64,000 bases of DNA, from the NCBI GenBank assembly GCA_964399675.1, contig CAYNRK010000005.1:766-64765 (forward strand). Direction: 5' to 3'. Under the pieces are notes generated by a model that worked only from the letters and a program-made list of their open reading frames with translations, did not search any database and was not told the origin of the DNA. Of this stretch, positions 3,538 to 64,000 are shown in pieces. Position numbers and translations under genes: made by a program. The DNA is from an uncultured Gammaproteobacteria bacterium (GTDB lineage: Bacteria; Patescibacteriota; Patescibacteriia; UBA9934; GWF2-40-263). Each line of letters begins with the position of its first letter. The first letter of the stretch is position 1.

Positions 3538-3546
3538 TAGTTAAAA

Positions 3547-3575: not shown

Positions 3576-3584
3576 TTAATAGAA

Positions 3585-3652
3585 ACACCCGCCGTCGCTC
3601 TTGTAGAGCTATGGCGGGCGAGGCCCCCGTAGCCAGCTGGCCGCGGGGGTGT
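3585..3652 (-). terminator. Terminator region of paralog 2 (two GC hairpins)
   Basis: acccgccgtcgctc..gagctatggcgggcg and cccccgtagccagctggccgcggggg. T-rich on the minus strand after the first (rc of aatagaaac). Confidence 0.45.
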
Positions 3653-3676
3653 ACGTCGTTGAGCTCGACGAGTCGT

Positions 3677-5137: not shown

Positions 5138-5183
5138 TAGACGTCTCCTTTGTAGACGTAAGTTGGTAAGGTGCGGAGAATGA

Positions 5184-5212
5184 AGATACCACAAAATAGG
5201 CTTTTTGTCAAT
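5184..5212 (-). promoter_or_regulatory. Sigma70-type promoter of paralog 2 (TTGACA-17-TATCTT)
   Basis: rc reads TTGACAaaaagcctattttgtggTATCTT, followed by the conserved leader. Confidence 0.5.
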
Positions 5213-5215
5213 ATT

Positions 5216-5332
5216 CTTGCGTCATTGCGAGGAGGCCATCCGACGGCCGACGAAGCAACCCCGTTTTCGAGTTCGTAAACGAGATTGCTTCGCTTAATAA
5301 GCTATTCTCGCTCGCAATGACGCGAGTTGCAG
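5216..5332. repeat. Nested palindromic MITE/REP-like element (gcgtcattgcgaggagg ... ctcgcaatgacgc)
   Basis: Outer IR cgtcattgcgag / ctcgcaatgacg with an inner IR gaagcaa / ttgcttc. It is an extra ~117 bp here compared with the other three inter-paralog spacers. A partial inverted copy lies at 13585..13640. Confidence 0.45.
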
Positions 5333-5344
5333 TTTTCCAAATAG

Positions 5345-5385
5345 AAACACCCGCCGTCGCTCTTGTTGAGCTATGGCAGGTGAAG
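5345..5385 (-). terminator. Terminator of paralog 3
   Basis: acccgccgtcgctcttgttgagctatggcaggtg hairpin, preceded on plus by aaatagaaac (a T-run on the minus transcript). Confidence 0.45.
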
Positions 5386-5410
5386 TGGCTGGTTAGGCCG
5401 AGAGGGGTGT

Positions 5411-6466
5411 CTACTTGAGGCCTTGGACGAGCCGCTTGTAGAACGACTTGTCTTTCCGGAGCTTCCTGACGTCCTCTTGGACTTCGTGGATCCAGAGTCC
5501 GGCCTGGTCTGCCTCAATGTCTTGCGCAAGCGCTGCCAGCCAGATCCGGTAGATCCGGATCATGTCCTCGCCGATCTTGGAGGCCTTGGCGCGTTGGTAG
5601 AGCATTAGGCACATGGGATCCATTCTGCCGAAGTTGGCTTTTTTCACCCCCGAGTACTTGAGTCGGGTTGCATGCCAGAGCTCGAGAAGCCGTCGGTTGA
5701 GTCCGGTTCGTTGATCTTTGGTCAAGCCTTGCGCGATCTTGCGAACCCAGGGCCCGGCCTTCTTCACCGCCTTTGGGTTGGCGACGAGCTTTCGCAGCAG
5801 CATGACGATCGGGTCCTTGCCGTCGCTTCCTCTGAGGAACTTGCCGTACGGGATGAAATTCCCATTTGCGTAGAAGTGGTGTTGGCCAAAGCTGCCATCG
5901 TCTTTGTGGTTGCCAGGATGATGTGCCAGGCCCTTGACGATCATGCCGGCAAGCGTTCTGGGCAATCCATCGAATGGCACGTTGCGTGTGATCTCGCCTG
6001 ACTTGTCGAATTCTGGCACGACCTCGCAGGTGATATAGGTATAGTTGTCTGCCTTACGGGTCTTGGCAGGACAGTTGGGAGCGAGTCCTTTTTTGAAACG
6101 GACAGTGACGTTCACTGGAACCTGAGGGAACCTGCCTTTTCTGAGCAAGGGCAGATTCCTGGGAGCGTTTTTGATCCGCTCGTTGAGGTGGATCATCCCG
6201 TGATGTACGTCACTCTCGATGGCCTGGAAGTCTGTACGTGCCTTTTTTTCATGCTCGCGCAGTTGAGCTTCTGCACGATTGACCGAGTTTGGATGGAGCC
6301 TTGACCCCACCTCTACGGTGCATTGGTTGCACTCGCAATAGTCTGGAGCCGAGCCCAACAGTTTCGGTTCTTTCCCGGACGACTCGTCCGATGATGACTC
6401 ATCCGATCCGCTGCAAGCGCACAGCATGGCCGAAACGACCATTGCGAGAATGTAGGTATGACGCAT
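5411..6466 (-). CDS. Exported lipoprotein-like protein, paralog 3 (unknown function)
   Basis: ATG start. MRHTYILAMVVSAMLCACSGSDESSSDESSGKEP has a signal + Cys + Ser-rich linker. Conserved blocks: GPWVRKIAQGL, LMLYQRAKASKIGEDMIRIYRIWL, LWIHEVQEDVRKL. Confidence 0.65.
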   Translation of the reverse strand: MRHTYILAMVVSAMLCACSGSDESSSDESSGKEPKLLGSAPDYCECNQCTVEVGSRLHPNSVNRAEAQLREHEKKARTDFQAIESDVHHGMIHLNERIKNAPRNLPLLRKGRFPQVPVNVTVRFKKGLAPNCPAKTRKADNYTYITCEVVPEFDKSGEITRNVPFDGLPRTLAGMIVKGLAHHPGNHKDDGSFGQHHFYANGNFIPYGKFLRGSDGKDPIVMLLRKLVANPKAVKKAGPWVRKIAQGLTKDQRTGLNRRLLELWHATRLKYSGVKKANFGRMDPMCLMLYQRAKASKIGEDMIRIYRIWLAALAQDIEADQAGLWIHEVQEDVRKLRKDKSFYKRLVQGLK

Positions 6467-6513
6467 TGGCCGTCTCCTTGTGGTAGACGTAGGTTGATAA
6501 GGTACGGAGAGTT

Positions 6514-6542
6514 AAGATACTACAAAATCAGCTTTTTGTCAA
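6514..6542 (-). promoter_or_regulatory. Sigma70-type promoter of paralog 3 (TTGACA-17-TATCTT)
   Basis: rc reads TTGACAaaaagctgattttgtagTATCTT plus the conserved leader. Confidence 0.5.
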
Positions 6543-6549
6543 TAATAGA

Positions 6550-6585
6550 AACACCCCCGCGGTCAGCTGGTTGCGGGGGTATGTG
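6550..6585 (-). terminator. Terminator of paralog 4
   Basis: cccccgcggtcagctggttgcggggg hairpin; minus transcript continues tgtttctattatt. Confidence 0.5.
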
Positions 6586-6606
6586 TGTTGAGCCAAGAAG
6601 TCCTGT

Positions 6607-7728
6607 CTATTCCTCTTCCACTTTCTTGGGAAGGTTGAGGCGCGAGATGAGCAGCCTATACTTGTGTTTGTCCCTCTCGAGCTTCTTGAGATCCTCGCGG
6701 ACAACGTGCGCCCACTTGGCAACCTGGGCCTCTGCTCCTGCGTCGTGCGCGAACGTGATCAGCCAGGCTCTGTAGATCCTCATGAGATCTTCGCCAATGC
6801 GGGAAGCGAGCGCGCGACGGTACATGAGGCCGTGCATTTCGTTTCCGTCACTTTGTGTGAAGTCCTTATCGGCGTTGACCTGCTTGGCGAACTCGTCAAA
6901 GTCAAAGACGGTTGCCTTCCACAACTCCTCGAATCGCCCTGACAACACTCGTTTTTGCCCTTCGGGCAAAAGCTTGATCACCTTACGAACCCACGGTCCA
7001 GCATGTAGCAAGAAGAAGGGAGACACTACGAGCTCTTTGAGTTTTTCAGTGATTGGATCATGAATTGACCCATTAGGCTCGAAAGTTACCAAAGGGATGA
7101 ATCCGAATCCTTCTTCTGCGTCATAGTTGGAGTAGTACGTGTATTGTTCGTTGGTGTCTTCGAATCCAAAATCTTCGATTTTGTATAGTACCAGCCCTGC
7201 GAGTTCACGCGGGTTTCCAGAGAATTGCCCCATGTTTTCGTGGGTCATGTATTCGGTGTGATTGGTTATGCAGGTCGTATATGCGAGACCATCGGATTCG
7301 CGTTCCATTTCGAATTCGTAGGTTTCGAGATAGTTTTCTGGAACACTGAGCCAGAAGACGGGTTTTGCAAGCTGCACCTTTTTCTTTAGCTTGAATGGAG
7401 TTTTTGGAAGACTCCTTCCAAGCTCAAAGGCGCTTTTCAACGATGCTTTTACCCCTTCGATTTTTTTGGGATTTGCAGCCTCAGCATCTTCGAACTCTTT
7501 TTTGGATGATGCAGAGTGCTCTGGATCAAGCTTCCCAGCCATCACCTCAGTGCACTCCTCACCTTCCTTGAGTTCATTGCTTGGTCTGGGAAGCGGTTGA
7601 GGTTCAATGTCTGTTTGCGCGACTGGTTTTGGTGCTTCTGCGTTCGGGCTGAAACGCCAGAGCAGAAGAACTGCTGCGGCCAAGATCAAGGCCGCTCCGA
7701 CTACTGCAGCTACTCTTGCACGTAGCAT
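6607..7728 (-). CDS. Exported protein, paralog 4 (unknown function)
   Basis: ATG start. N-terminal hydrophobic anchor. Conserved blocks shared with paralog 1 along the whole length (PSNELKEGEECTE.., RELAGL, GPWVRKVIKLL, LMYRRALASRIGEDLMRIYRAWLITFAHD, WAHVVREDLKKL). Confidence 0.65.
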   Translation of the reverse strand: MLRARVAAVVGAALILAAAVLLLWRFSPNAEAPKPVAQTDIEPQPLPRPSNELKEGEECTEVMAGKLDPEHSASSKKEFEDAEAANPKKIEGVKASLKSAFELGRSLPKTPFKLKKKVQLAKPVFWLSVPENYLETYEFEMERESDGLAYTTCITNHTEYMTHENMGQFSGNPRELAGLVLYKIEDFGFEDTNEQYTYYSNYDAEEGFGFIPLVTFEPNGSIHDPITEKLKELVVSPFFLLHAGPWVRKVIKLLPEGQKRVLSGRFEELWKATVFDFDEFAKQVNADKDFTQSDGNEMHGLMYRRALASRIGEDLMRIYRAWLITFAHDAGAEAQVAKWAHVVREDLKKLERDKHKYRLLISRLNLPKKVEEE

Positions 7729-7768
7729 CGGTACTCTCCTTGATCGTATTGGTAAGGTGCGGAGAGTT

Positions 7769-7797
7769 AAGATATTACAAAATTAGCTTTTTGTCAA
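7769..7797 (-). promoter_or_regulatory. Sigma70-type promoter of paralog 4 (TTGACA-17-TATCTT)
   Basis: rc reads TTGACAaaaagctaattttgtaaTATCTT plus the conserved leader. Confidence 0.5.
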
Positions 7798-7804
7798 TAC
7801 GAAA

Positions 7805-7840
7805 CACCCGAGGAGTTTTTCGGGTGTGAGTCTGGTGTTG
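7805..7840 (-). terminator. Terminator of membrane-protein gene 7861..8670
   Basis: cacccgaggagtttttcgggtg hairpin; minus transcript followed by tttcgtatt. Confidence 0.4.
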
Positions 7841-7860
7841 AGTTGCCCTTTTGGGCGAGC

Positions 7861-8670
7861 CTATGGGTTCGGGCGGAGCCGGATCAGTTCGTTCAGATTC
7901 TGGTCCCAGGTGTGCATCAGCTTGAGCTGCACGATTACGCCACGATGCCCTTCGGAGAATCGCACTTGAAGGGGTGAATCAGCCAGGAGGTGTAGGTCGA
8001 GCGTTTCGAGAAGGTCGATCAGTCGACCACGCATCTTGCGCATGCCTTTGAGCCATTCCGCGTGGTCGTTGAGGTATGACTCAGGGTGAGTCACGTTTTC
8101 TTCGAGCCAGATGACCTCTTTGGCCCAGCGGGCTCTGAGGGTTCGCAGGCCTTTGAACCACGCGCACCTGAAGTCTGGGCTGATGTCGATGAACCTGCGC
8201 ATGAGGTGTCGGTTTTTTTCCGACAACCAGAACGCCAGGTAGTACCCAGCGAACACGGCCGCAAACATCACGAGCAAGATGTGTGCCGGAAAGGCACGTT
8301 CATTCACGAAGCTTGTGAAGCTGATGCCATCGGGCCGTGGACTGCTCAGGATTGCTGCGGTTGTGCCAAAGGCCATGATGAATGTGATGATGCACACCAC
8401 CATGTAGTCTGGCGGTACGTGCGCGATGAGGACAATGACGCCTATCATGTGCAGCAGCGCCAGGACGCGTTGCAGCAAGATGATTCGTTGGGTCCTTTGT
8501 TGTAGCGAACGAGCATGTGCTGGTTGCAGCGAAAGCAGATTGAACAGGTACAGAACACGTGACGTCAGAACATCATCGTTGATCCGCCTGATGTCGAGAG
8601 CGTTAGTAGCGGTGGTTGTCAATTCATTTCCCCTGGAGTGGTTCCTGCCAACGACAAAAGCTATCATCAT
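7861..8670 (-). CDS. Hypothetical integral membrane protein
   Basis: 269-aa ORF in the same orientation and GC-rich block as the paralogs, with several predicted TM helices (VIVLIAHV.., VVCIITFIMAFGTTAAIL, ILLVMFAAVFAGYYLAFWL). No recognisable motifs. Confidence 0.45.
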   Translation of the reverse strand: MMIAFVVGRNHSRGNELTTTATNALDIRRINDDVLTSRVLYLFNLLSLQPAHARSLQQRTQRIILLQRVLALLHMIGVIVLIAHVPPDYMVVCIITFIMAFGTTAAILSSPRPDGISFTSFVNERAFPAHILLVMFAAVFAGYYLAFWLSEKNRHLMRRFIDISPDFRCAWFKGLRTLRARWAKEVIWLEENVTHPESYLNDHAEWLKGMRKMRGRLIDLLETLDLHLLADSPLQVRFSEGHRGVIVQLKLMHTWDQNLNELIRLRPNP

Positions 8671-8697
8671 CCCAGCCTTTTGTCAATTATAGAAAAC

Positions 8698-8730
8698 AAA
8701 AGACCCCCAAAATTTTGGGAGTCTTTTGGT
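8698..8730. promoter_or_regulatory. Dyad cccccaaaattttgggag near the promoter of 7861..8670
   Basis: Near-palindrome aagaccccc-aaaatttt-gggagtctt next to cttttgtcaat (rc attgacaaaag, -35-like). Same CCCAAAA-TTTGGG core as 3547..3575. Confidence 0.3.
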
Positions 8731-9228
8731 GTCTCAGGATATGTCTGTAAGCCGAATTTTGTCTTCCCTTGGTTTTCACCAAGAGGAGGTGGAAATCTAT
8801 CTAGCCTGACCATTGCTGGCCAGATCATGCGAGCTACCAAATTTGCTCTTACACCGGAAAGGGTTTGCCACGTCTCCATGTCACCATGGGACGAAACATG
8901 TAGCAGATGAAATAAATCTCAACCACACCATGTCACTTTTCACGTTTCATTCAGCCGAAGCTGAACTAGTATCGTCTCTGCGGCACTTTCCCTAGGCTTA
9001 AGTTCAGATGCCAAGGAGTGAATAAATCCAACTCCTCGATTTCTGATTTGTATACCCGGTCGCCGTTAGCGACTTTCCTTTTTTTGTAAGGTTGCCCTAT
9101 ACAAAGGTGTTCGGACTTTCCTCGTATCCACAAAGGACACGTATCCACCCGACATTCCTGGGACGCGGAGATAGTACCAAAGATAGGACAAAAAGTCAAG
9201 GTTGTTTACTTTAATTAAGTTAAAACGA

Positions 9229-9262
9229 AAACCCGCCGTTGCTCCTTCGGAGCTATGGCGGG
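9229..9262 (-). terminator. Terminator of 9316..10335
   Basis: cccgccgttgctccttcggagctatggcggg hairpin; minus transcript followed by ttttcgtttt. Confidence 0.45.
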
Positions 9263-9315
9263 CAGGCGCGCTCTTGGCGCGTTGAGTGGGGTCGTGTTTT
9301 TTGAAACTGTCTTTG

Positions 9316-10335
9316 TCAGGCAGCTTCTTCCAGTTGGCTGTAGTCTTGCGTGGCGTTGAAGGCTTCGATCCTTCGGACGATCTCTCCATCACCTTCTCGG
9401 ATGAAGCTTCCGCCTTTGCAAGCCAGGCCCTCGTCGTCCAGACCAACGAAGATAGTGATGCCGCGTCCTTCGCCGTACTGTACTGCCTTGACCACGTTGA
9501 CTAGACGCGGCGGAGTGAACGAACCGTCCTTGAGTGCTGTTTCAAGCGGAGTGCCGCTAGCAGCAAACGTTGGGTTCAGGTGCATGGAGATGACTGCGCC
9601 AGGAATGCGATCCTGAATTCGGCTCAGGTAGTCGATTGCAGCCTGGATGTCAGCGACAGCTTCCTCTTCTGTCATGCCAGGCACTGGCTTGAACATGAAG
9701 TAGCACTTGGTATGGAAACCGTGCTTGGCAAGTCTTGCAACCAGCCTTTCGAACTGGTTGAGCGGAAGTCCTTTGAGAAAGACCCGCTCTCTGATTTGAT
9801 TGTCAAAGGCCTCGAATCCGACTGCGACTTCGAACGTGGTTGGGGTCTGCCCCTCGTCCACTGCCCGCCTGACGAATTCGAGCTCAGCGTCGTCCACGTA
9901 CTCTGCACGCGACTCAAACGAGAGAACCGCCATGTTGGGCAAGTGCTTGTTGCACATTGCAATGAAGTAGACGAGCGCAGCTGAGGAAAAGGTCTTCTGG
10001 TCAAGGACTGAGCCTTGGTTGCTGACGATTACCTTTCTGATCTTTTGGGCTCGAGTCTTGATCTCGTGGTGGTTGAACAGGTATTTGACCTGCTCCATGA
10101 TGTCCTCGAAACCGATGTGGTTTCGTGATGCTGTTGACGGCAGGTTGCAGCTAATGCATCTTTGCCATCTGCACGCTTGGGTGTGGAAGATCACGAACAG
10201 GACCAGGCCCTCGTGCGAGTTCTGGAAGAAGAACCTTACCGGACGAGTTGGGTCATGGTTGTCGTCAAACTCGTGAGTCTTGCCAACTGCCTTGTGGCCG
10301 CGTTCGATCCTTTGGCGTGTAGTTTCGTGTGGCAT
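9316..10335 (-). CDS. Putative radical-SAM-like enzyme (noncanonical CX4CX2C cluster)
   Basis: 339-aa GC-rich ORF. N-terminal HTQACRWQRCISCNL (Cys-x4-Cys-x2-Cys) followed by Gly-rich/TIM-barrel-like segments. Family assignment is uncertain; possibly a TIGR01210/RaSEA-like archaeosine-type radical SAM enzyme. Confidence 0.35.
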   Translation of the reverse strand: MPHETTRQRIERGHKAVGKTHEFDDNHDPTRPVRFFFQNSHEGLVLFVIFHTQACRWQRCISCNLPSTASRNHIGFEDIMEQVKYLFNHHEIKTRAQKIRKVIVSNQGSVLDQKTFSSAALVYFIAMCNKHLPNMAVLSFESRAEYVDDAELEFVRRAVDEGQTPTTFEVAVGFEAFDNQIRERVFLKGLPLNQFERLVARLAKHGFHTKCYFMFKPVPGMTEEEAVADIQAAIDYLSRIQDRIPGAVISMHLNPTFAASGTPLETALKDGSFTPPRLVNVVKAVQYGEGRGITIFVGLDDEGLACKGGSFIREGDGEIVRRIEAFNATQDYSQLEEAA

Positions 10336-10417
10336 TTCAAGCTCCCATGTTCAAAGAGCGTTCGGACGATTCCGAAGGTCGACTTTAGGGAAATTATCAA
10401 TTTTTGTCAATGCAAAT

Positions 10418-10447
10418 CAAAAACAGAGGATAACCTCTGTTTTTTTG
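10418..10447. terminator. Bidirectional rho-independent terminator (trpS 3' end)
   Basis: aaaaacagagg-ataa-cctctgttttttt with A-run and T-run on either side, 2 nt from the trpS stop. Confidence 0.6.
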
Positions 10448-10448
10448 T

Positions 10449-11432
10449 TTAAAGTTGAACTCCGATTTTTTTTCTAACTTCTACCATCTTTTTGCTTGCC
10501 ATCTTTTCCGCTTTTTTCGCTCCATCTGCTAAGACCTTTTTGAGCTTGTCTTCATCCTTTAGATAATCATTGATTTTTTCTTGGAGCGGAGTGAGGAATT
10601 CTGTTATGCGGGCTGCAAGGTCTTTTTTAAAGTCACCGTAACCTTTTCCATTAAATTTTTTCTCAATCGTTTTTATATCTTCATTTGTCACAAGTGCGTA
10701 GATTGTCAGAAGATTTGCCAAACCTTTTCTTGATTCATCGTAGACAATGGTTGATTCAGAATCAGTTACAGCACTTGCAATTTTTTTTGCAACGGTTTTT
10801 TCATCATCCATGAGGGAGATAAAGTTTTTCTCACTTGGTGCCGACTTTGACATTTTGTGATCTGGATCATCAAGCCCCAGAATGCGCGCGCCTTGTTTTC
10901 TGATTTGTGGTTTTGGAACAACAAAAGTTTCACCAAATCGATTATTGAATTTTTCTGCCAGATCTCTTGTGAGTTCAATATGTTGTTTTTGATCATCGCC
11001 AATTGGGACAATTTCAGTGTCATACAAAAGAATGTCCGCTGCCATTAAGACCGGATAATCGAATAGGCCAACGAAGTTATTTAATAGTTTCAACTTCTTA
11101 TCTTTATATTGTGTCATCCGTTCGAGTTCGCCCATTGTCGTTATGCAATTTAGTACCCATGCAAGTTCAGTGTGTTCTTGAACTGCTGACTGTTGAAATA
11201 GAATTGTTTTTTCAGGATCAACCCCGGCAGCTAAATAAGCTGCTGTTCCAAAAAGAATATTTTTGCGAAGATCTTTTGGATCTTGTGGAACAGTAATTGC
11301 GTGGTAATCAACAACAAATAAAAAATTTTCGTTTCCAGAATTCTGAAACTCAACAAATGGTTCCATGGCTCCGAAATAGTTTCCAATATGGAGCATTCCG
11401 GAAGGTTGTAGTGCGGTTAGTACTCTTGCCAT
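10449..11432 (-). CDS. trpS: Tryptophan--tRNA ligase
   Basis: Class I aaRS with the GNYFG HIGH-like region (LHIGNYFGA) and KMSKS (HKMSKSAP). Typical TrpRS length of 327 aa. Confidence 0.9.
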   Translation of the reverse strand: MARVLTALQPSGMLHIGNYFGAMEPFVEFQNSGNENFLFVVDYHAITVPQDPKDLRKNILFGTAAYLAAGVDPEKTILFQQSAVQEHTELAWVLNCITTMGELERMTQYKDKKLKLLNNFVGLFDYPVLMAADILLYDTEIVPIGDDQKQHIELTRDLAEKFNNRFGETFVVPKPQIRKQGARILGLDDPDHKMSKSAPSEKNFISLMDDEKTVAKKIASAVTDSESTIVYDESRKGLANLLTIYALVTNEDIKTIEKKFNGKGYGDFKKDLAARITEFLTPLQEKINDYLKDEDKLKKVLADGAKKAEKMASKKMVEVRKKIGVQL

Positions 11433-51840: not shown

Positions 51841-53907
51841 TTGTGTTTTATTTTAATTATGACTAACAGAATGAGCACAGTGAAAAAGGCTGATGTTTTA
51901 CTACAACTTGTGAAGTTTGGTATTTACGGGCTTTTTGTTGTCCCCATGCTAAATTGGCATTCGCTCATGTTTTCTTTTGAAACAACTAAGGGCTTGCTAA
52001 TCATTGTTATTGCCGAGATTGTTTTTGTTCTTTATTTGTGGCTAATCTCTGTTGCGCCTCAATATCGTCCTTCTTTTGGTTTAATAGAAAAAACGTTATT
52101 CTTTTTTATTGCAATTTTTTCTCTCGCATCGTTTTTTGGAATAGATCCTTTATTCAGTTTTTGGGGAGATGTTGATCGAATGACAGGTGGGTTTATCTGG
52201 CTTCACCTTATTGCGATTTTTGTTGTGTTAGTTGGTGTTTTTAGGTCTGAAAGAGAATGGTTACATTTATTTTCATTTTCAATCGGCATTGCACTTTTTA
52301 TTGTTTTTTTACATTTTTTAACAAAGCTGGGATTTGATTTGATTCCGGATCATCGTGCTGGGTCAACGTTTGGTAATTCATCATATTTTGCAGTCTACCT
52401 TTTGTTTCATGTCTTTTTTTCATTTTTTGTTGCGCTTCATGCAAAAACAAAACAAATGAAAATTTATGGTCTATTATCATTTTTATTTCTAATCGTTGCG
52501 CTTTTTTTTGTGCCCGCCAATGCAGTGAGATATGCTGTTTTTGGAGGATTGATACTTTGCTTTGCGCTTATTCTAATTAGTCATGGCAAAGCAAAATTGC
52601 AAATCTGGTCTGGGTGGATCCTTCTTGGTATTTTGTCTTTGTTTTCGTTTATCATAATATTTACAGCCTTTCAGCCCGGTAGTAAGTCGCATGAACATTT
52701 TGTAGAAATATCTTCTGAAGCAAGATTTGTTGTGTGGAATATTGCCTGGGAAGGAATCAAGGAACGCCCGTTTTTTGGTTGGGGGCCTGAGAATTTTAAG
52801 TATGTTTTTTTGAAATATTATGATCCTTGCTTTGGATCAAAAAGATGCGGTCCTGAGATGTCTTTTGACCGTGCTCACAATAAGATACTTGATTCTTTGA
52901 TTGAGTATGGTTTTATTGGATCAGTTTTTTATTTAATGATTTTTGTAGCGGCAATTTTTGAGCTTTGGAAAAGAAAAAACAGAAAAAGACTTGGATTTAT
53001 ACCTGCGATTTTTACCTCGCTCGTGATCGCATACTTTATACAGAATTTAACCATTCTTGATGTATCTACAAGCTTGCTATTTTTTATTATAGTATTATCT
53101 TTCGTTTCTGTTTCCATTAACAAGCAGTTTTTTCAAGACAAGCGCCCAGTACTTTCTGATCCTATGAAAAAGAAGAACATAGCGTTACCTCTGATTGCTT
53201 CTTTGCTTTTTCCAATCAGCCTTTTTTATTTTTTTGTTCAGCCTGCACGAGCGTCTGTGGCTGCGCTAAAGATCGATGGCAGAATGACACATGCCAGACG
53301 AATTGAATTATTCCAAATCGCAGCAGATGCCTCCCCATTTGGTTTAAGAACAAGACGAGGTTATATTTGTTTTCAAACTATTAAGTGGATTTGGGCCAAT
53401 GGGTCGGAATTGATTGTTTCAAATCGTCCTTTGATCGAGGATGAGATAAAGCGTACAGAAGAATATTTATTAGATACTTTAGAGAGAACACCAAACTATC
53501 TAAGAGGTTACATTGAGTTGGGGGCTCTTTATCAGCTAAGCGGGCGTTTTGTAAATCCAGAAGACTTTCAAAAAGCTGAAAATATTTTACTAAAAGCCGC
53601 ACAGTTAAATCCCAATCATCCAAATCCATTTTGGGCACTAGCGTCACTTTATGTTGAACAGGGAAGATACAAAGAGGCGTTAACACTCACACAGGAGGTT
53701 ATTGCCAGAGATCCAATGGTTATTGAAGCGCAAATAAATGATTTGGTTGTATCAAAATTTTTGGATGATCAGGATCAACTGGAAGAAAAAGCTCAGCGTA
53801 TCTCAAAGATTTTTCCTCAATATGCACATGTAGTTGATAATGTTATGAAAGCGGATATACAAGAACAGTTTCATGTGCTTCTTTATGAAATTTATGGAGG
53901 TTTTTAA
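51841..53907 (+). CDS. O-antigen ligase/polymerase-like (Wzy_C) membrane protein with C-terminal TPR repeats
   Basis: ~10 TM helices; Wzy_C-like core (..GSTFGNSSYFAVYLLF.., WNIAWEGIKERPFFGWGPENFKYVF, FDRAHNKILDSLIEYGFIG); C-terminal TPR-like helices. Paralog of 53935..55980. Confidence 0.65.
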   Translation: MCFILIMTNRMSTVKKADVLLQLVKFGIYGLFVVPMLNWHSLMFSFETTKGLLIIVIAEIVFVLYLWLISVAPQYRPSFGLIEKTLFFFIAIFSLASFFGIDPLFSFWGDVDRMTGGFIWLHLIAIFVVLVGVFRSEREWLHLFSFSIGIALFIVFLHFLTKLGFDLIPDHRAGSTFGNSSYFAVYLLFHVFFSFFVALHAKTKQMKIYGLLSFLFLIVALFFVPANAVRYAVFGGLILCFALILISHGKAKLQIWSGWILLGILSLFSFIIIFTAFQPGSKSHEHFVEISSEARFVVWNIAWEGIKERPFFGWGPENFKYVFLKYYDPCFGSKRCGPEMSFDRAHNKILDSLIEYGFIGSVFYLMIFVAAIFELWKRKNRKRLGFIPAIFTSLVIAYFIQNLTILDVSTSLLFFIIVLSFVSVSINKQFFQDKRPVLSDPMKKKNIALPLIASLLFPISLFYFFVQPARASVAALKIDGRMTHARRIELFQIAADASPFGLRTRRGYICFQTIKWIWANGSELIVSNRPLIEDEIKRTEEYLLDTLERTPNYLRGYIELGALYQLSGRFVNPEDFQKAENILLKAAQLNPNHPNPFWALASLYVEQGRYKEALTLTQEVIARDPMVIEAQINDLVVSKFLDDQDQLEEKAQRISKIFPQYAHVVDNVMKADIQEQFHVLLYEIYGGF

Positions 53908-53934
53908 TTATTTAGATTAATGTAGGCAATAGTT

Positions 53935-55980
53935 ATGCAAAAAGCCGAAATAAGTAAAGATCCTTCAATGCTTGGATACATAAAGGTTGGAATTTGTCTG
54001 CTCATGTTTACTCCGCTGGTTCATGGCAAGGTTTTTTATTTTCCATATTCAAGCACAAAAACCTTCTTTTTTCTTGCTGTGATTGAAGTGATTTTTCTTT
54101 GTTACGCCTGGCTCATTTTTTTTCATCCACAGTATCGTCCACGGTTTAGTTTAATGGGGAAGTCCTTGTTTCTATTTGTCGGGATACTTTTGTTGGCATC
54201 AATTTTCGGCAATGATCCTGTCTATAGTTTTTGGGGAGGTGCCATGCGGTCTCTGAGCATAATTGTTTGGATTCATTTAGCCGGTCTGTATATCGTGCTT
54301 GTTTCCGTGTTTCGTACAATAAAAGATTGGCAAAATTTATTGCTGGTGTCTGTTTGTGTTGGTGTTGTTGTATCACTGATCTATCTATTGTCGCTTGCTG
54401 GTTTTGATTTATTTGTTAAACCAAAATCTGGATCTACACTTGGCAATTCATCTTTTTTAGGTGCGTATCTTTTGTTTCAAATCAGCTTTGCTTTTCTTTT
54501 GGCTTTTATCAAAACAAATTCATGGAAACGCACGTTCGGAATTTGCAGTTTTATTTTTCTTGTTTTTACTCTTTTGCAAACCCATGCAAATGCAGCGATT
54601 TTTTCTTTATATGGAGCCGTTGTTCTTTTTCTCGCACTCTTTTTGATTACTCGTAAAAAAAGCATGTTTCAGAAGAACGCAGGCAAGTTGTTGCTTGTTG
54701 GATTAGGTGTTGCTTTTTTTTCCTTTCTTGTTCTTACGTTTGTTCCTGAAAGTTTTGTGCGCGAATTCATTATTGATAAATCAAGCGGTACACGTTTTGT
54801 TTTGTGGGATATTGCCTGGAAAGGCATTAAGGAACGGCCGCTATTAGGCTGGGGTCTTGAAAATTACCAAAATCTTTTTGCGAAATTTTACAATCCTTGT
54901 TTGGGATCACAGGCATGCGGATTTGAAATTTGGTTTGATCGAGCACACAATAAAATTCTTGATGTTCTTGTTGAAACCGGGGTAATTGGATTAATTGCCT
55001 ATATGAGTATTTTCGTTTCCGCCCTTTTGACGATTTGGAGATCTTATAAAAAACAAATGATTAACGGGATTGTGGTTTCGTTGATTCTTGCAATCTTGGC
55101 TGCCTATTTTGTCATGAACTTAACAGTTTTTGACACCCTATTAAGTTATGTTTTCTGGTTGGTACTTCTAGCATTTATTGAAGTTACAACAAGATCAAAT
55201 ATTGACCAAGAGTTAAATCACACAAAGCGCAAGGTAATTATTCCTGCGCTCGTGCCAGTTATTGCCACTCTTGTCATGCCTGTTACATTTTTCTTTTTTG
55301 TCATTCAACCTGTTCGTGCAAACATTGCAACAAGAAATGTTGTTATTAGCATGACAATGAATGAGCGTTTTTCAGATTATGAAAAAGCTTTGGGAATTTC
55401 TATGATGGGTATTGATAAGCGGAGATCTTTTTTAGCAGCACAGACAACAGCGCTAATTTGGGATACAGATCTCAAGATACTACAAGACAACAAAGAATTA
55501 TTTCAAAAAGAATTATGGTTAGCGCAAAATGGTTTAATACAGACAATAGAACGCCGCCCAAATTATTTGCGGGCATATTTAGATCTTGGATTTCTATATC
55601 AAACAGAAGCGCGATTTTATAATCCTGTGATGTATAAAGATGCAGAAGAAATTACTATTCGGGCATTGGAGTTAAATCCAAACAGTCCTCTTCCTTATTG
55701 GGCGCTTGTTTCGATTTATATTGATCAAGATCAAATTAAGAAAGCGCTGCCATTTGTTGAGAAAGCTGTGGCTTTAGATTCGCAGGTGCCTGACTCTCAT
55801 CTGCGACGTCTTGTTGCTATGAAATTTACCGAAGATAAAAATTTAATCCAACAGGCAATAGATGAATCACTTCAAACCCATCCCACACTTGAAGAAAAAA
55901 TACAGACTCTCATTTCAGCTGATCTTGATCAGTACAGGGATATTTTATTGTTCAGATTTTATTACGATGCGCGGTTATAG
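53935..55980 (+). CDS. O-antigen ligase/polymerase-like (Wzy_C) membrane protein with C-terminal TPR repeats (tandem paralog)
   Basis: Same blocks as 51841..53907 (GSTLGNSSFLGAYLLF, WDIAWKGIKERPLLGWGLENYQNLF, FDRAHNKILDVLVETGVIG). Confidence 0.65.
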   Translation: MQKAEISKDPSMLGYIKVGICLLMFTPLVHGKVFYFPYSSTKTFFFLAVIEVIFLCYAWLIFFHPQYRPRFSLMGKSLFLFVGILLLASIFGNDPVYSFWGGAMRSLSIIVWIHLAGLYIVLVSVFRTIKDWQNLLLVSVCVGVVVSLIYLLSLAGFDLFVKPKSGSTLGNSSFLGAYLLFQISFAFLLAFIKTNSWKRTFGICSFIFLVFTLLQTHANAAIFSLYGAVVLFLALFLITRKKSMFQKNAGKLLLVGLGVAFFSFLVLTFVPESFVREFIIDKSSGTRFVLWDIAWKGIKERPLLGWGLENYQNLFAKFYNPCLGSQACGFEIWFDRAHNKILDVLVETGVIGLIAYMSIFVSALLTIWRSYKKQMINGIVVSLILAILAAYFVMNLTVFDTLLSYVFWLVLLAFIEVTTRSNIDQELNHTKRKVIIPALVPVIATLVMPVTFFFFVIQPVRANIATRNVVISMTMNERFSDYEKALGISMMGIDKRRSFLAAQTTALIWDTDLKILQDNKELFQKELWLAQNGLIQTIERRPNYLRAYLDLGFLYQTEARFYNPVMYKDAEEITIRALELNPNSPLPYWALVSIYIDQDQIKKALPFVEKAVALDSQVPDSHLRRLVAMKFTEDKNLIQQAIDESLQTHPTLEEKIQTLISADLDQYRDILLFRFYYDARL

Positions 55981-59530: not shown

Positions 59531-61444
59531 ATGAAAAAGATCGCCGTCCTCTTCCCAACGCTTGCAATCGCCCTTTTCGGCATTGTGGGCATCGGCGTCT
59601 CCACGGTTTTTGCAGCCGGTAGCGCAACTATGAATCTCTCGCCAACGAATGTTTCCGTTGACCCTGGTGAGACATTTACGCTCAGTGTTGTAGTAAATCC
59701 AAATGGAGCATCGCTCGATACAGTGCGACTGAATATCAGATACGATTCAGACGCCATTGAGGCTTTGTCATATGACAACGGAAGCCTCTTTCCATTCCTT
59801 TCTCCAGCTAACGAGATTGATAACGACTCCGATGGAGTTGGAGAACTCAGTTATGGGGCATTCAAATTTGGATCTCCTGTAACAAGCTCTGGTGTTGTAG
59901 GAACTGTTACGTTCCGCGCACTGACTGGCGGAAGCCATACTGTAACCGTGAACAGCACATCAAAGCTGATCTCTGACGGAATTGAAAAACTTAATACAAG
60001 CAACTTGGGATCAACAAGCGTTTCTGTTAGTGGCGGAAGTGCAGATAAGACACAGCTTACAGACACACCAACAGCAGACGTCACAATTGGTGGCGAAACA
60101 GAAGAGGATGCAACTGATGAAGAAAATGCTCTTACATATTTCACCGCTCTTGCAGGCCGCACCCCATCAACGCTAGAAGATTGGGACATGCACCAGTGCA
60201 TAATTGATGACTCCTGTCTTGATGTAAATGCCCGAGACCTTAGTTATGAAAATGCTGCACTTGCTTTCTTTAACAACGTATTCGGAACTAATCCATCTTC
60301 AGCAATGGATTGGAACTCAGTGCATGCACTTGCATATACAAGTGTTGGACAAGGGATTCTGGGGCTTGAACCATTAAGTACTGAAGTAGTGGAAACACCA
60401 ACAGCAACGGAAACTCCCGCAGCAGAGGAAGAGGCTGCTGAGGAAGAAGAAGTCGTGGAAGAAGAAAAAGACTACTCAGTAATGACAGATGTAGAAAAAG
60501 AAGCAACAGCACTTAAGTACTTCGGAGCATTCTACGGACGCATGCCAAGTTCCGGTAATGATTGGGACGCATTGCACTGCATGGCTTATGGCGGATGCCA
60601 AGGTGATCCACGAGATGTAGAGGCAGAAGCAGCAGCTCTTGAAACTTATGGAGCTAAGTACGGCAAGATGCCGGAAACAACAATTGAATGGAACACACTC
60701 CACGTTCTTGCTTACACAGATTTGTTGCAAGCAGGAGAAGAAGAGGTCGGAGAGGTTGAAGAGGTCGAAGAAGTCGAAGAGGTTGTCGAAGAGGAAGTGG
60801 TTGTTGAAGAGGTAGTTGAGGAAGTTGTTGAGGAAGAAGAAAAAGACTACTCAGTAATGACAGATGTAGAAAAAGAAGCAACAGCACTTAAGTACTTCGG
60901 AGCATTCTACGGACGCATGCCAAGTTCCGGTAATGATTGGGACGCATTGCACTGCATGGCTTATGGCGGATGCCAAGGTGATCCACGAGATGTAGAGGCA
61001 GAAGCAGCAGCTCTTGAAACTTATGGAGCTAAGTACGGCAAGATGCCGGAAACAACAATTGAATGGAACACACTCCACGTTCTTGCTTACACAGATTTGT
61101 TGCAAGCAGGAGAAGAAGAGGTCGGAGAGGTTGAAGAGGTCGAAGAAGTCGAAGAGGTTGTCGAAGAGGAAGTGGTTGAAGGAGAAGTTGTTGAGGAAGA
61201 ATCAGATGAACTTACTGATGAAGATGCAATCGGTCTTTATGGACAGATTTATGGAGAGTTGCCAGGGGATGGAAATAGCGGCTGGTCTTTCGTTGACATT
61301 GCTGTGAATGGATACACAGGCGAACGAGATCTGGATGCTGAAGCAGCAGCACTTGAAACTTACACCTCAACCTTTAATAGTCTTCCTGCAAGTGATTCAG
61401 ATTGGAGAGTAATGGATGCAATCGCTTATTCAACAACTAGTTAA
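59531..61444 (+). CDS. Secreted protein with N-terminal cohesin-like domain and repeated acidic ~40-aa C-terminal modules
   Basis: Signal peptide. Cohesin-like beta-sandwich pattern (ATMNLSPTNVSVDPGETFTLSVVVNPNGASLDTVRLNIRYDSDAIEAL..GVVGTVTFRALTGGSHTVTV). Then at least 6 copies of a module E..AL.YF...YGR.P....DW..LH..AY... separated by EEV acidic linkers. Confidence 0.55.
   Translation: MKKIAVLFPTLAIALFGIVGIGVSTVFAAGSATMNLSPTNVSVDPGETFTLSVVVNPNGASLDTVRLNIRYDSDAIEALSYDNGSLFPFLSPANEIDNDSDGVGELSYGAFKFGSPVTSSGVVGTVTFRALTGGSHTVTVNSTSKLISDGIEKLNTSNLGSTSVSVSGGSADKTQLTDTPTADVTIGGETEEDATDEENALTYFTALAGRTPSTLEDWDMHQCIIDDSCLDVNARDLSYENAALAFFNNVFGTNPSSAMDWNSVHALAYTSVGQGILGLEPLSTEVVETPTATETPAAEEEAAEEEEVVEEEKDYSVMTDVEKEATALKYFGAFYGRMPSSGNDWDALHCMAYGGCQGDPRDVEAEAAALETYGAKYGKMPETTIEWNTLHVLAYTDLLQAGEEEVGEVEEVEEVEEVVEEEVVVEEVVEEVVEEEEKDYSVMTDVEKEATALKYFGAFYGRMPSSGNDWDALHCMAYGGCQGDPRDVEAEAAALETYGAKYGKMPETTIEWNTLHVLAYTDLLQAGEEEVGEVEEVEEVEEVVEEEVVEGEVVEEESDELTDEDAIGLYGQIYGELPGDGNSGWSFVDIAVNGYTGERDLDAEAAALETYTSTFNSLPASDSDWRVMDAIAYSTTS
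60461..61180 (+). repeat. Perfect 375-bp tandem duplication inside 59531..61444
   Basis: gaagaaaaagactactcagtaatgacag... recurs exactly 375 nt later (60461 vs 60836). The antisense ORFs 60476..60730 and 60851..61105 are identical 84-mers. The second copy diverges after ~340 nt. Confidence 0.85.
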
Positions 61445-61464
61445 TTTACGGAGGCACAAGCGAT

Positions 61465-62313
61465 ATGAAATACAACATTCTCATCCTAGCCCTCGCACTC
61501 GTGATGTTTCCGTTCGGAGTATTTGCAGCAAAATCAAGCACAAGCTACATATTGGATCCTGCTGACAACGTTACGACAATACACCACTCAGTAAGCTCAA
61601 CAAGTTATGCGATTGACGGCTCTCTTGACCCAATGACCGGCAGTCTCTCGTCCACTTCATATGCTATTGAATCAGGTGATGCAGCTCGATTCTTTTGCGG
61701 AGACGGATTCGTAGATTCCGGCGAAGATTGTGACAGTGACGATTTATTAAACGGCGGAACATGTGTAAGCGAAGGATTCTCAAGCGGAACACTAACTTGT
61801 TCATCAACCTGTGCATACGTCACCACTTCCTGTAACTCCGGAGGCGGCGGAGGCGGCGGAGGCGGAGGTGGAGGCGGCGGTAGTGTTACCGTGCCAAACC
61901 CGGCAACTGTTTCAAGTGAAATTACAGGTCTGGAATTCACTTACAGTTCAAGCATGCTTCTTTATGGAGGCAAAACAGTAAGTGCATCAGGTGTAAAAAT
62001 TAACACCTCAACATCCGGGGTTACATATCCGAACTCAACTTCCTGGCAGAAAACAGTTTCACTTTCTTACAGATCCAACTCATTTGACATTGTTGCATTC
62101 AGTGGTGGTGGAAGTGCGGCAACAACAACCTATGAAATTTACAGGCGATTGATTGGAGATCTTACTGAGGACAACACAGTAGACGACTATGACCTTAGTA
62201 AGTTCGTTGGACTGTGGGGAGGTTCGGACAGAGCAGGGGACTTTAATGAAGATAGTACAGTTGATGATTACGACTTCTCAATGTTAGTTGCTCGTTGGGG
62301 AACATCGGTTTAA
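61465..62313 (+). CDS. Secreted protein with Cys-rich module, poly-Gly linker and C-terminal dockerin-like repeat pair
   Basis: Signal peptide. CGDGFVDSGEDCDSDD..TCVSEG..CSSTCAYVTTSC Cys-rich repeat, then a G14 linker. C-terminal GDLTEDNTVDDYDLSKFV / GDFNEDSTVDDYDFSMLV are two calcium-binding dockerin-type segments. Confidence 0.55.
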   Translation: MKYNILILALALVMFPFGVFAAKSSTSYILDPADNVTTIHHSVSSTSYAIDGSLDPMTGSLSSTSYAIESGDAARFFCGDGFVDSGEDCDSDDLLNGGTCVSEGFSSGTLTCSSTCAYVTTSCNSGGGGGGGGGGGGGGSVTVPNPATVSSEITGLEFTYSSSMLLYGGKTVSASGVKINTSTSGVTYPNSTSWQKTVSLSYRSNSFDIVAFSGGGSAATTTYEIYRRLIGDLTEDNTVDDYDLSKFVGLWGGSDRAGDFNEDSTVDDYDFSMLVARWGTSV

Positions 62314-62334
62314 AGGGGGCAAGATGAATAAATT

Positions 62335-63522
62335 ATGAAACAATTTTTAACCGGACTGATGATCTTGAGTGTCATGGTGTTGATCGCACCAGTGGCACAA
62401 GCAGCAAGCGCAACCATGAGTCTTAGTACAGATGTACAGACAATTCAGAGGGGACAAACGTTTGATGTAGTGATCGGAGTGAATCCAAACGGCGAAGAGC
62501 TCGATACAGCAAGAGCTGTTATAACCTTTACTCCAGGAGTGCTCAGTATTGAAGATTCAGAACTAACAGGATCGTTTAATCGAACCTCGCCAGGGAATTC
62601 AGCCAACAATTCAACAGGGAAACTTTCACTAGGGGGTTTCACTCTTGAAGGGCCGATCACAAGATCAGGAGAGTATGCGCGAGCAAGTTTCAGAGCACAG
62701 CAAACAGGCACTGCAACAATCACAGTTTCACCGGACTCAAGACTTATTTCAGCAGGGGAAGAAAAGATTGACACAGCATTTGTTTCATCAGTTGAGATAA
62801 CTGTGGAAGATGCACAAGACGATCAGGAAGTAGCAAGACTGGCAGTGAGCTCAGACTCACACAAAAACCCTGCCATTTGGTATAGCAACAACACGGTTGA
62901 TCTCTCATGGGAGGTTAACCAAGCTGGAGCAACAGATTTAACAGGATTTTATGTAACATTTGACCAACAATCTGACACAGACCCAACAGTATTTGTAAGC
63001 GCTTCGACTTTAAGCCGAACATACTCGGACGTTGAAGATGGTGTGTGGTACTTCCACATCAAAGGCCAGCACGAGAATGGTAAACAAACAAAAACCGTTC
63101 ATCGTCGCGTGGCAGTTGACACAACACCACCAAACGAACTTGCAGTAACGTTTAGCTACTCTCAATTACTTGAGACAGAAACAACAGAAGCATTTTTTGG
63201 AACAACAGACGATACTTCCGGAGTTCTCTACTATGAGGCAGCGATTAATCGTGGGGCATTTGAGCCACATGTTAGTCCGCTTACTTTAGGAAACATGCCA
63301 GTGGGAACATATTTTGTTGAAGTCAAAGCAATTGATAAAGCAGGTAATGAAATTTTTGGGTCAAACACCTTACGAGTTTATCCAAAAGGAACAGAATTAA
63401 TTAGACCGGAAGAAACAGAAAAATCTGGCCTAACAAATAGAATGAAGATTTTGATAACTGTTGTGTTGGGAGCTCTCATCCTCTTTACAATAATTTATGG
63501 AATTAAAAAAAGAAAAAATTAA
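62335..63522 (+). CDS. Cell-surface protein with N-terminal cohesin-like domain, Ig/FN3-like repeats and C-terminal TM anchor
   Basis: Signal peptide. N-domain parallels that of 59531 (ATMSLSTDVQTIQRGQTFDVVIGVNPNGEELDTARAVITF..GEYARASFRAQQTGTATITV). C-terminal MKILITVVLGALILFTIIYGIKKRKN TM segment with a basic tail. Confidence 0.5.
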   Translation: MKQFLTGLMILSVMVLIAPVAQAASATMSLSTDVQTIQRGQTFDVVIGVNPNGEELDTARAVITFTPGVLSIEDSELTGSFNRTSPGNSANNSTGKLSLGGFTLEGPITRSGEYARASFRAQQTGTATITVSPDSRLISAGEEKIDTAFVSSVEITVEDAQDDQEVARLAVSSDSHKNPAIWYSNNTVDLSWEVNQAGATDLTGFYVTFDQQSDTDPTVFVSASTLSRTYSDVEDGVWYFHIKGQHENGKQTKTVHRRVAVDTTPPNELAVTFSYSQLLETETTEAFFGTTDDTSGVLYYEAAINRGAFEPHVSPLTLGNMPVGTYFVEVKAIDKAGNEIFGSNTLRVYPKGTELIRPEETEKSGLTNRMKILITVVLGALILFTIIYGIKKRKN

Positions 63523-63688
63523 TAAACAATAATAAATATCACCAAGTCTTAAAAAATTAAGGCTTGGTGATTGAGTCGTTTGAGGAATTTTTCATCAACC
63601 GACTTGATTACCAAGCCGAGTGTGAGTATGACCACTCACGCTCAGTCAAATTTTAAAAAATTAATTGCATATACAAATAAAAAAAAGT

Positions 63689-64000
63689 ATGCGCGTCGCC
63701 AAAACACTTCTAAACACTTTCGTCGGAATCTCCCTGGTGTTTTACACACTAGCCATTGGAATTCTGGCAACACCGCTTGCTGCAGAAGCTGCAACAACCG
63801 GTATCCCAGATACAATCACGTATCAGGGTCGATTAAAAAATTCAAGTGGTGCTGCCTTAACAGGTACGTACGACTTTATTTTCTATCTGTACGATGCTTC
63901 TACAGGTGGAACTTTAACAGCAACTGTCACAAAGGATGATGTAACAGTAACAAGTGGTTATTTTACAACATCACTCAGCTTTGATGACACGATTTCTGAT
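63689..64000 (+). CDS. Hypothetical secreted protein (partial; runs off the window end)
   Basis: MRVAKTLLNTFVGISLVFYTLAIGILATPLAAEAATTGIPDTITYQGRLKNSSGAALTGTYDFIFYLYDASTGG.. Signal peptide. Open in frame 2 to the end of the window. Confidence 0.4.
   Translation, partial: MRVAKTLLNTFVGISLVFYTLAIGILATPLAAEAATTGIPDTITYQGRLKNSSGAALTGTYDFIFYLYDASTGGTLTATVTKDDVTVTSGYFTTSLSFDDTISD

Follow-up and report, generated by a model that had tools for sequence, protein, structure and literature searches.

Introduction

In the clostridial anchoring arm, the type II X-dockerin of CipA is bound by the cohesins of SdbA, OlpB, and Orf2p of Clostridium (Acetivibrio) thermocellum. In this report, we describe a set of genes at positions 59531-63522 of a 64-kb stretch of bacterial DNA (contig CAYNRK010000005.1; "the window" below means this whole stretch), the products of which probably form a divergent, non-cellulosomal cohesin-dockerin surface system of Candidatus Uhrbacteria. 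The three genes, designated here as g1, g2, and g3, encode a secreted cohesin protein, a secreted dockerin protein, and a membrane-anchored cohesin protein. Together with a giant gene that follows them, g4, they are best explained as a vertically inherited four-gene cassette within which the cohesins and the dockerin are predicted to pair.

The cassette resembles the clostridial arm in having a Ca2+-loop dockerin, with internally symmetric halves, directly behind an immunoglobulin-like (Ig-like) module, and in having mono- or oligovalent cohesin proteins with an envelope anchor that would serve tethering and not catalysis. It differs in that the anchor is a transmembrane (TM) helix in g3 or, putatively, an 82-aa helical module in g1, rather than an SLH or sortase anchor. 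The dockerin protein g2 is a small non-enzymatic adaptor and not a multi-cohesin scaffoldin, and there are neither enzymes nor carbohydrate-binding modules (CBM). The host is a Candidate Phyla Radiation (CPR, or Patescibacteria) bacterium with a tiny genome, and the dockerin is about 54 aa in length with D-Y in place of the S/T-type recognition residues.

The NagH/NagJ toxin pairs of Clostridium perfringens (2jnk, 2ozn) are likewise non-cellulosomal, carry a small helical or Ig-type module ahead of the dockerin, and are, of all solved structures, those best matched by the profile of the g2 family (E value of 9e-5). Those pairs join large secreted glycoside hydrolase toxins, whereas the present locus lacks catalytic domains and has one partner anchored in the membrane. 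A 2009 survey by Peer et al. reportedly found scattered non-cellulosomal modules resembling cohesins and dockerins in bacteria and archaea, Archaeoglobus fulgidus being one example. The present locus shares with these the occurrence of one or a few cohesins and dockerins in organisms that do not degrade cellulose, but it is distinguished by a fixed, lineage-wide set of four genes with a 2:1 ratio of cohesins to dockerins, a defined anchor, and a giant fiber gene as the neighbor.

In Omnitrophota, giant "dockerin-type" surface proteins have been proposed to function in attachment (bioRxiv 10.1101/2023.11.21.568195). As in those ultra-small and possibly host-dependent bacteria, dockerin/EF-hand repeats are associated here with giant surface proteins. 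However, the Omnitrophota dockerins lie inside the giant and no dedicated cohesin genes have been described for them, while g4 has no dockerins and a separate trio of genes supplies the pair. NCBI already labels some orthologs of the cassette proteins as "cohesin domain-containing" or "dockerin type I domain-containing", and no account of a cohesin-dockerin cassette from Uhrbacteria or Parcubacteria turned up in our literature search.

Organization of the Locus

The initial annotation proposed three consecutive genes for secreted proteins at this location. Three open reading frames (ORFs) were found there, each with a signal-like hydrophobic N-terminus as judged from the sequence and from hydropathy. 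All three are on the + strand and co-oriented, with gaps of 20 and 21 nt between them. A second hydrophobic segment was detected by hydropathy in g3 only (aa 372-390), where it is followed by KKRKN; g1 and g2 have the N-terminal segment alone. The genes are as follows.

59531-61444, + strand: g1, secreted single-cohesin protein of 637 aa without a TM anchor, with four C-terminal 82-aa modules (ORF, hydropathy)
61465-62313, + strand: g2, secreted dockerin protein of 282 aa (ORF)
62335-63522, + strand: g3, membrane-anchored single-cohesin protein of 395 aa (ORF, orthologs)
63689-64000, + strand: g4, 5' end of a giant gene that continues beyond the end of the window (L001:12225-20849 on the parent contig)

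The same DNA is carried by a 264-kb metagenomic scaffold (L001, the parent contig), which is identical across the cassette. Judging from the names given to homologs, the source lineage is Candidatus Uhrbacteria of the CPR/Patescibacteria. When the window was translated in six frames and scanned with family hidden Markov models (HMMs) built in this work, exactly one dockerin and two cohesins were found in the entire 64 kb, which argues that the cassette is not a chance association. The unit is four genes, with the giant fiber gene g4 added to g1-g2-g3, and this corrects the three-gene picture that was drawn at first. A scan for promoters and terminators returned counts at or below the shuffled expectation and was uninformative.

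Conservation of the Cassette and Co-variation of the Pair

A synteny scan was conducted with one genome per species and covered 45 loci. The order g1-g2-g3 was found in about 35 of these 45 species-level loci, and the g1-like genes across the loci encode a cohesin together with 2-5 copies of the 82-aa unit. ORFs were counted in a set of 46 loci, made up of the 45 plus two copies of one separately fetched Uhrbacteria locus and the parent contig, less the loci without a match. In 36 of the 46, the count was exactly one dockerin ORF plus two cohesin ORFs, most of the exceptions being cut by contig ends; in 45 of the 46, each covering up to about 20 kb, there was exactly one dockerin ORF. Wherever a locus extends far enough downstream, a giant gene of the g4 type lies 3' of g3, with L035 as the one exception. 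Flanking housekeeping genes, among them those for an RluD-type pseudouridine synthase and Wzy_C proteins, were found to recur as well, and thus the cassette is taken to be a vertically inherited chromosomal feature and not a mobile island.

Gene pairs in which a dockerin gene is followed by a TM-cohesin gene were also found outside the core clade, in other Parcubacteria/Patescibacteria (L051, L053, L054, and L055). The Parcubacteria locus L051 has two such pairs (L051:3407-4871 and 7247-11019). The threshold of Dockerin_1 was exceeded in both of these pairs and that of Cohesin in one, the other cohesin being recognized by our own model only.

The dockerin loop residues were then tabulated against the cohesin column aligned to L56-R60 of g3, which we take, as a lead only, to lie about where Coh2 of C. 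thermocellum touches its dockerin through strand 3. For V-[DN]-D-Y-D dockerins, the cohesins read [LIVA]-D-x-x-R in 47 of 47 loci, and for V-N-[LI]-x-D dockerins, found at three loci, the cohesins read I-N-[AT]-x-[ESD]. Within L051, the gene for a D-Y-D dockerin adjoins that for an A-D-T-V-R cohesin, and the gene for a D-A-L-D / D-I-L-D dockerin adjoins that for an I-Y-T-A-K cohesin; by these motifs the two L051 pairs are apparently orthogonal. The co-variation fits an acidic dockerin position set opposite a cohesin arginine, and it is suggestive, though not proof, of neighbors that are cognate partners.

A different arrangement was noted in L055, where cohesin and dockerin are united in a single 238-aa protein of a distant Patescibacterium (L055:5589-6305, - strand). 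Such a protein could self-associate or polymerize head to tail.

The Dockerin Protein g2

Homologs of g2 (n = 104) are about 270-300 aa in length and are named Uhrbacteria, Parcubacteria, or Patescibacteria. The domain order and the invariance of residues were read from an alignment of 26 orthologs (A1), and the following features were assigned.

61534-61674, + strand: three S-T-S-Y-x-[IL] beta-repeats, aa 24-70 (conserved in A1; fold uncertain)
61696-61833, + strand: six-Cys module CGDGxxDxxExCD...C, aa 78-123, similar to DUF4215 and to the Myxococcus Cys-rich repeat (A1, model)
61837-61878, + strand: Gly14 linker (sequence; TRF array at 61839-61877; predicted local distance difference test score, pLDDT, below 50)
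61882-62148, + strand: Ig-like beta-sandwich, aa ~140-228, in an X-module-like position (model, Foldseek, Pfam)
62149-62310, + strand: dockerin, aa 229-282, with two F-hand loops that are each followed by a helix (A1, Pfam in orthologs, PDB profile, Foldseek)

The paired dockerin-like repeat that had been proposed for the C-terminus of g2 is present, with a D/T/N-D-D-D ligand pattern in both halves. The ligands at loop positions 1, 3, 5, 9, and 12 are D232, T234, D236, D240, and D243 in the first loop and D259, N261, D263, D267, and D270 in the second. Most of these positions are invariant across the 26 orthologs, and D-Y-D at loop positions 10-12 is invariant in both halves. Pfam Dockerin_1 (PF00404) was found in 23 of the 26 at an E value of 0.01 or better (best value, 3.8e-7). 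In the AlphaFold2 model of g2, the pLDDT exceeds 91 from residue 140 to the C-terminus and is about 95 over aa 229-282, with helices at 241-250 and 268-276. The last 54 residues were superimposed by Foldseek on the solved dockerin 2y3n_B with a root-mean-square deviation of 1.2 Å and a TMt of 0.82 over 54 columns, at 24% identity. The family profile, searched against the PDB, retrieved the NagH dockerins of C. perfringens cited above, followed by 4fl4 and 1daq. A PDB sequence search with g2 alone had returned Gly-linker artefacts only (single-chain variable fragments and fusion constructs) and was discarded in favor of the family profile.

Between the Gly14 linker and the dockerin, and abutting the latter, is an Ig-like sandwich that was overlooked in the initial annotation. 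It was modeled with a pLDDT of 91-97, its Foldseek matches are modules of the Ig/FN3/Glucodextranase-B type, and Pfam Glucodextran_B was found in 6 of the 26 orthologs. No sequence similarity of this module to known X-modules was found. The Cys-rich module and the Gly14 stretch described earlier as preceding the dockerin are both found in the sequence. The six Cys residues are invariant (26 of 26 sequences; pLDDT of 71-87), and the match to Pfam DUF4215 is weak, being found in one of the 26 orthologs (E value of 0.009); a weak match was also obtained with the L055 dockerin protein. For the S-T-S-Y region, short strands were predicted with a pLDDT of only 40-50. The "cargo" of g2 is a non-enzymatic Cys-rich head and not an enzyme.

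The Membrane-Anchored Cohesin Protein g3

Homologs of g3 numbered 52. Public gene calls place the start of g3 at the second ATG (62359, for a protein of 387 aa); we place it at the upstream ATG at 62335 because the MKQ... N-terminus is conserved among orthologs. The features of g3 are listed below.

62404-62820, + strand: cohesin module, aa 24-162 (identity to g1, Pfam in orthologs, own HMM)
62836-63384, + strand: two Ig/FN3-like modules, aa ~168-350 (Pfam in orthologs, NCBIfam, PDB)
63448-63519, + strand: C-terminal TM helix, aa 372-390, with the basic tail KKRKN (hydropathy)

The N-terminal domain of g3 was proposed to be cohesin-like and homologous to that of g1, and the two were found to be 36% identical (E value of 2e-24). 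Our cohesin HMM matches the g3 module at 1.2e-57, and Pfam Cohesin was found in 17 of 21 g3 orthologs at an E value of 0.01 or better. Of the positions that are at least 90% conserved in the g1-type and g3-type cohesins (27 and 21, respectively), 16 are identical in both types, as would be expected of two kinds of cohesin with one and the same invariant dockerin as partner.

The Ig/FN3-like repeats behind the cohesin were likewise recovered, with matches in orthologs to Big_13, fn3, a K319L-like PKD domain, and Y_Y_Y, and with a match to an OmpL47-type barrel at 5e-07; the family profile also matches the FN3 domain of the chitinase 6bt9 in the PDB. The C-terminal TM anchor, predicted at the outset, is evident from hydropathy, and the helix with its K/R tail is kept in 21 of 21 aligned orthologs. 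A TM helix with a basic tail at this end would place the cohesin of g3 outside the membrane.

Some g3-like proteins from elsewhere are longer. The distant proteins P0139, P0141, and P0154 (515-631 aa) are annotated as "four helix bundle protein", with precomputed matches to PF05635 and PF22296, and in the g3-like proteins of L053 and L054 the TM helix is followed by a long tail that is charged and coiled-coil-like. In other lineages, g3-like proteins may thus extend into the cytoplasm.

The Cohesin Protein g1 and Its 82-aa Modules

The 56 homologs of g1 are all from the CPR (Uhrbacteria or Patescibacteria) and range from 352 to 686 aa in length. The following features were assigned to g1.

59531-59614, + strand: signal-peptide-like segment, aa 1-28, ...TVFA/AG (sequence reading, hydropathy)
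59618-60043, + strand: cohesin module, aa ~30-171 (Pfam PF00963, own cohesin HMM)
60098-60349, + strand: 82-aa four-helix module, copy 1, aa 190-273 (HMM, 7e-33)
60482-60730, + strand: 82-aa module, copy 2, aa 318-400, the copy that was modeled (HMM, 9e-37)
60857-61105, + strand: 82-aa module, copy 3, aa 443-525, a recent tandem duplicate of copy 2 (375-bp repeat)
61196-61438, + strand: 82-aa module, copy 4, aa 556-636, at the extreme C-terminus of g1 (HMM, 1e-26)

Residues 35-151 of g1 match Pfam Cohesin (PF00963) with a score of 38.8 bits, above the gathering cut-off of 24.1, and our own cohesin HMM matches the module at 1.6e-41, in agreement with the cohesin-like N-domain of the initial annotation. 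The same annotation listed at least six acidic repeats behind this domain. Repeats are indeed present, but their number and nature are different; an 82-aa unit occurs four times, equivalent to eight half-repeats, and its copies are kept apart by acidic linkers rich in E and V. The repeats of g1 are an undescribed C-terminal module family and not simple acidic repeats. Copies 2 and 3 are a tandem duplication (60457-61199) with a period of 375 bp, 2.0 copies, and 98% identity. The corresponding gene from the same population in L006 (L006:2589-4127) has exactly one 375-bp unit fewer and 0 mismatches elsewhere; the three- and four-copy forms of g1 reflect either a true copy-number polymorphism or a collapse in short-read assembly.

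The AlphaFold2 model of copy 2 alone has two helix-loop-helix halves, for a total of four helices, at a pLDDT of 92. Within aa 190-637 of g1, no match to Pfam or NCBIfam was found beyond the chance level, no fold match to the PDB was found with Foldseek (best E value, 1.3), and there was no match in sequence or fold to SLH, PG_binding_1, LysM, or CWB2. The sole PDB sequence match of the 82-aa profile, the designed helical-repeat protein 8fje, was rejected; it consists of a short "AL..Y....G.LP" motif and was judged not to reflect homology.

The 82-aa profile was searched against 1.84 billion representative proteins, and the module was found in 1190 representative clusters, 690 of these with an E value of 1e-10 or lower. 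In 106 of the 150 best matches, the best-scoring copy ends no more than 5 residues from the C-terminus. The carriers are otherwise unrelated and include S8 peptidases, proteins with CarboxypepD_reg, LRR, beta-helix, Laminin_G_3, or CHB_HEX domains, and cohesin proteins, as well as giants of 2,200-3,500 aa with 2-4 terminal copies behind low-complexity linkers. The named sources of the module proteins (P0210-P0352) are Uhrbacteria, Patescibacteria, and Peregrinibacteria. In being tandem, C-terminal, and promiscuous among secreted proteins, the module recalls the surface retention provided by SLH, LysM, and CWB2, and on this ground g1 would be retained in the envelope. By the same analogy, the 82-aa module may be a general surface-retention signal of secreted CPR proteins.

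The Giant Gene g4

The spacer between g3 and g4 is 166 nt in length and holds the following feature, which the terminator scan did not call.

63540-63569, + strand: hairpin CACCAAGTCTT-loop-AAGGCTTGGTG, with a perfect 11-bp stem and no T-run after it (sequence reading)

On the parent contig, the g4 product is 4572 aa in length, rich in D, T, A, and G, and repetitive, and it has an I-x-Y-Q-G-R-L motif. The N-terminus of the g4 family is hydrophobic and strikingly conserved (MRTAKI.LH...VFYTLA..., then I-G-Y-x-G-R-L). Among complete orthologs, Peptidase_S74 was found with 51 bits in L033 and a weak match to H_lectin in L037. With an intramolecular chaperone of the Peptidase_S74 type in one ortholog and an H-type lectin match in another, g4 is best described as a tail-fiber-like surface fiber. 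It resembles tail-fiber proteins with a C-terminal Peptidase_S74/endosialidase chaperone in its long repetitive body as well, and differs from prophage tail fibers in being chromosomal and syntenic in a CPR lineage. No dockerin, cohesin, or 82-aa module was found in g4 or its orthologs, and the idea that g4 is the dockerin cargo was rejected for this reason. In several assemblies, g4 is broken by runs of N.

Proposed Function and Alternatives

The best reading of these sequences is that the cassette would constitute a Ca2+-dependent system for surface display or attachment, with predicted binding between its cohesins and its dockerin. An anchored cohesin and dockerin system outside the cellulolytic context had been suggested from the start, and the domains, the TM anchor, the conserved gene order, and the co-variation of the motifs all speak for it; the cassette yielded neither a glycoside hydrolase nor a CBM, and in this reading it has no role in polysaccharide breakdown.

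In the proposed mechanism, g1, g2, and g3 would be exported via Sec. The g3 protein would reside in the membrane with its cohesin held outward on the two Ig-like modules, and the dockerin of g2 would plug in a Ca2+-dependent manner into the g3 cohesin, giving a membrane tether, and/or into that of g1. Because its two halves share the same D-Y-D, the dockerin of g2 would be able to bind in either orientation; a symmetric dual-binding mode of type I dockerins has been described in a review (PMC12484212). The g1 protein would be held in the envelope by its 82-aa modules, by analogy with the SLH-type modules of anchoring scaffoldins, and would provide a second, envelope-associated socket. In this manner, g2 would show its Cys-rich / S-T-S-Y head on the Gly14 tether. 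More speculatively, the trio and the giant tail-fiber-like g4 might act together to build the envelope or to attach the cell to a host or substrate, and the g2 head might contact g4.

Several results weigh against this proposal. The g2 of the window is below the cut-off for Dockerin_1 (13.8 versus 22.9 bits) and scores 18.9 against the NCBIfam model dockerin_GC, below its cut-off of 29. The g3 of the window has no Pfam Cohesin match at an E value of 1 or better, and the g3 family profile, searched against PDB sequences, retrieved FN3/Ig modules and no solved cohesin. The co-variation amounts to three motif classes only, which are phylogenetically clustered. The S-T-S-Y region, part of the supposed cargo, was modeled with low confidence. 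The anchoring role assigned to the 82-aa module comes from architecture alone, and the module has no structural relative in the PDB. Finally, g4 is tied to the trio only by synteny, since its orthologs contain neither dockerins nor cohesins.

The subthreshold Pfam scores of g2 and g3 would also fit modules that are real but unpaired. The trio would then be co-transcribed surface proteins, each with a role of its own, with the dockerin acting as a Ca2+-stabilized element or as a binder of something other than a cohesin and the cohesins acting as Ig-like spacers. Locus L038, which has g2 and g4 genes and no cohesin gene within 7.4 kb upstream, would fit this explanation, and non-cellulosomal dockerin- and cohesin-like modules are, according to the Peer et al. 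survey, reportedly mostly without an assigned function. We nevertheless judge unpaired modules to be unlikely. The dockerin and TM-cohesin genes adjoin in about 45 species, and independent pairs are found in other CPR; the motifs co-vary at the level of classes, with matched neighbors within a single genome; and both cohesin paralogs keep the same 16 positions beside an invariant dockerin D-Y-D.

It is highly improbable that the cassette is a minimal cellulosome-like organizer of enzymes, in which g3 or g1 would scaffold dockerin-bearing hydrolases encoded elsewhere and g2 would be one client of several. The parts are of the cellulosome type, secreted S8 peptidases and lectin-like proteins of CPR carry the 82-aa module of g1, further CPR dockerin proteins exist (for example, a protein of 974 aa in L051), and the inspected sequence represents 74 kb of the 264-kb contig. 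However, no catalytic domain or CBM was found in g1-g4, and no dockerin-bearing carbohydrate-active enzyme (CAZyme) or other catalytic domain was found in g1-g4 or their orthologs. The two cohesin proteins are each monovalent, and there is a single dockerin in the 64-kb window and one dockerin ORF in nearly every locus that was counted. The strict 2:1 ratio of cohesin to dockerin genes and the fixed gene order speak for a dedicated partner and not a pool of clients.

We give equally little credence to pairing between cells, in which released g2 or g1 would bind cohesins or dockerins on a host or neighbor as part of the adhesion of an episymbiont to its host. Neither g1 nor g2 has a TM anchor, the g4 orthologs have tail-fiber and lectin features, an episymbiotic life is common among CPR bacteria, and a published study mentions in passing an envelope protein of a Saccharibacterium that has a dockerin domain and is essential (PMC10633639). 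The cognate-looking partners are, however, encoded next to each other within a genome and co-vary, and g3 is anchored in the membrane of the producer itself; no host is known. A true cellulosome is rejected, given that no CAZymes, no CBM, no multivalent scaffoldin (g1 and g3 have one cohesin each), and no SLH or LPXTG sortase anchor were found in the cassette proteins with Pfam and NCBIfam.

An extended form of the proposed display system would make the cassette an attachment organelle of Uhrbacteria. The cohesins of g3 and g1 would clamp g2, the head of which would hold or cap a trimeric g4 adhesin for contact with a host, and the 82-aa module would be a CPR-wide envelope anchor that over 1000 families of proteins carry, proteases and giants among them. 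We consider this larger picture, taken as a whole, to be quite unlikely and put it forward only as a conjecture.

Other Features of the Window

Just upstream of the cassette, at 51841-55980 of the window, are two adjacent genes for Wzy_C (O-antigen ligase/polymerase-like) membrane proteins, one of which has TPR repeats. A Wzy_C gene upstream of the cassette was also found in one related genome. These genes may represent a surface-glycan context of the cassette.

At the other end of the window, positions 2331-7728 (- strand) contain four paralogous ORFs of 351-505 aa with signal- or lipoprotein-like N-termini. The paralogs share the motifs GPWVR and MIRIYR.WL..FAHD and have no Pfam match. The G+C content of this block is 51-58%, versus 36-41% for the rest of the window, and the block adjoins an RNase P RNA gene at 8731-9160 (- strand). 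It may be an acquired island.

Significance

A substantial part of bacterial diversity falls within the CPR/Patescibacteria, which for the most part are uncultured and are believed to live in attachment to other cells. To our knowledge, hardly any of their surface-building proteins have been annotated. The locus described here offers a concrete surface-assembly module, predicted to consist of a plug (the D-Y-D dockerin), two sockets (the D-T-x-R cohesins), a membrane anchor, and a conserved giant fiber partner. Cohesin-dockerin biology would thereby be extended to a minimal, enzyme-free, membrane-anchored format. Three pairings that look orthogonal, in which D-Y-D goes with D-T-x-R, N-L-x-D with I-N-A-x-E, and D-A-L-D with I-Y-T-A-K, are possible small affinity parts. 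As a by-product, the analysis has brought to the surface an 82-aa C-terminal domain that occurs in about 1200 clusters of secreted CPR proteins.

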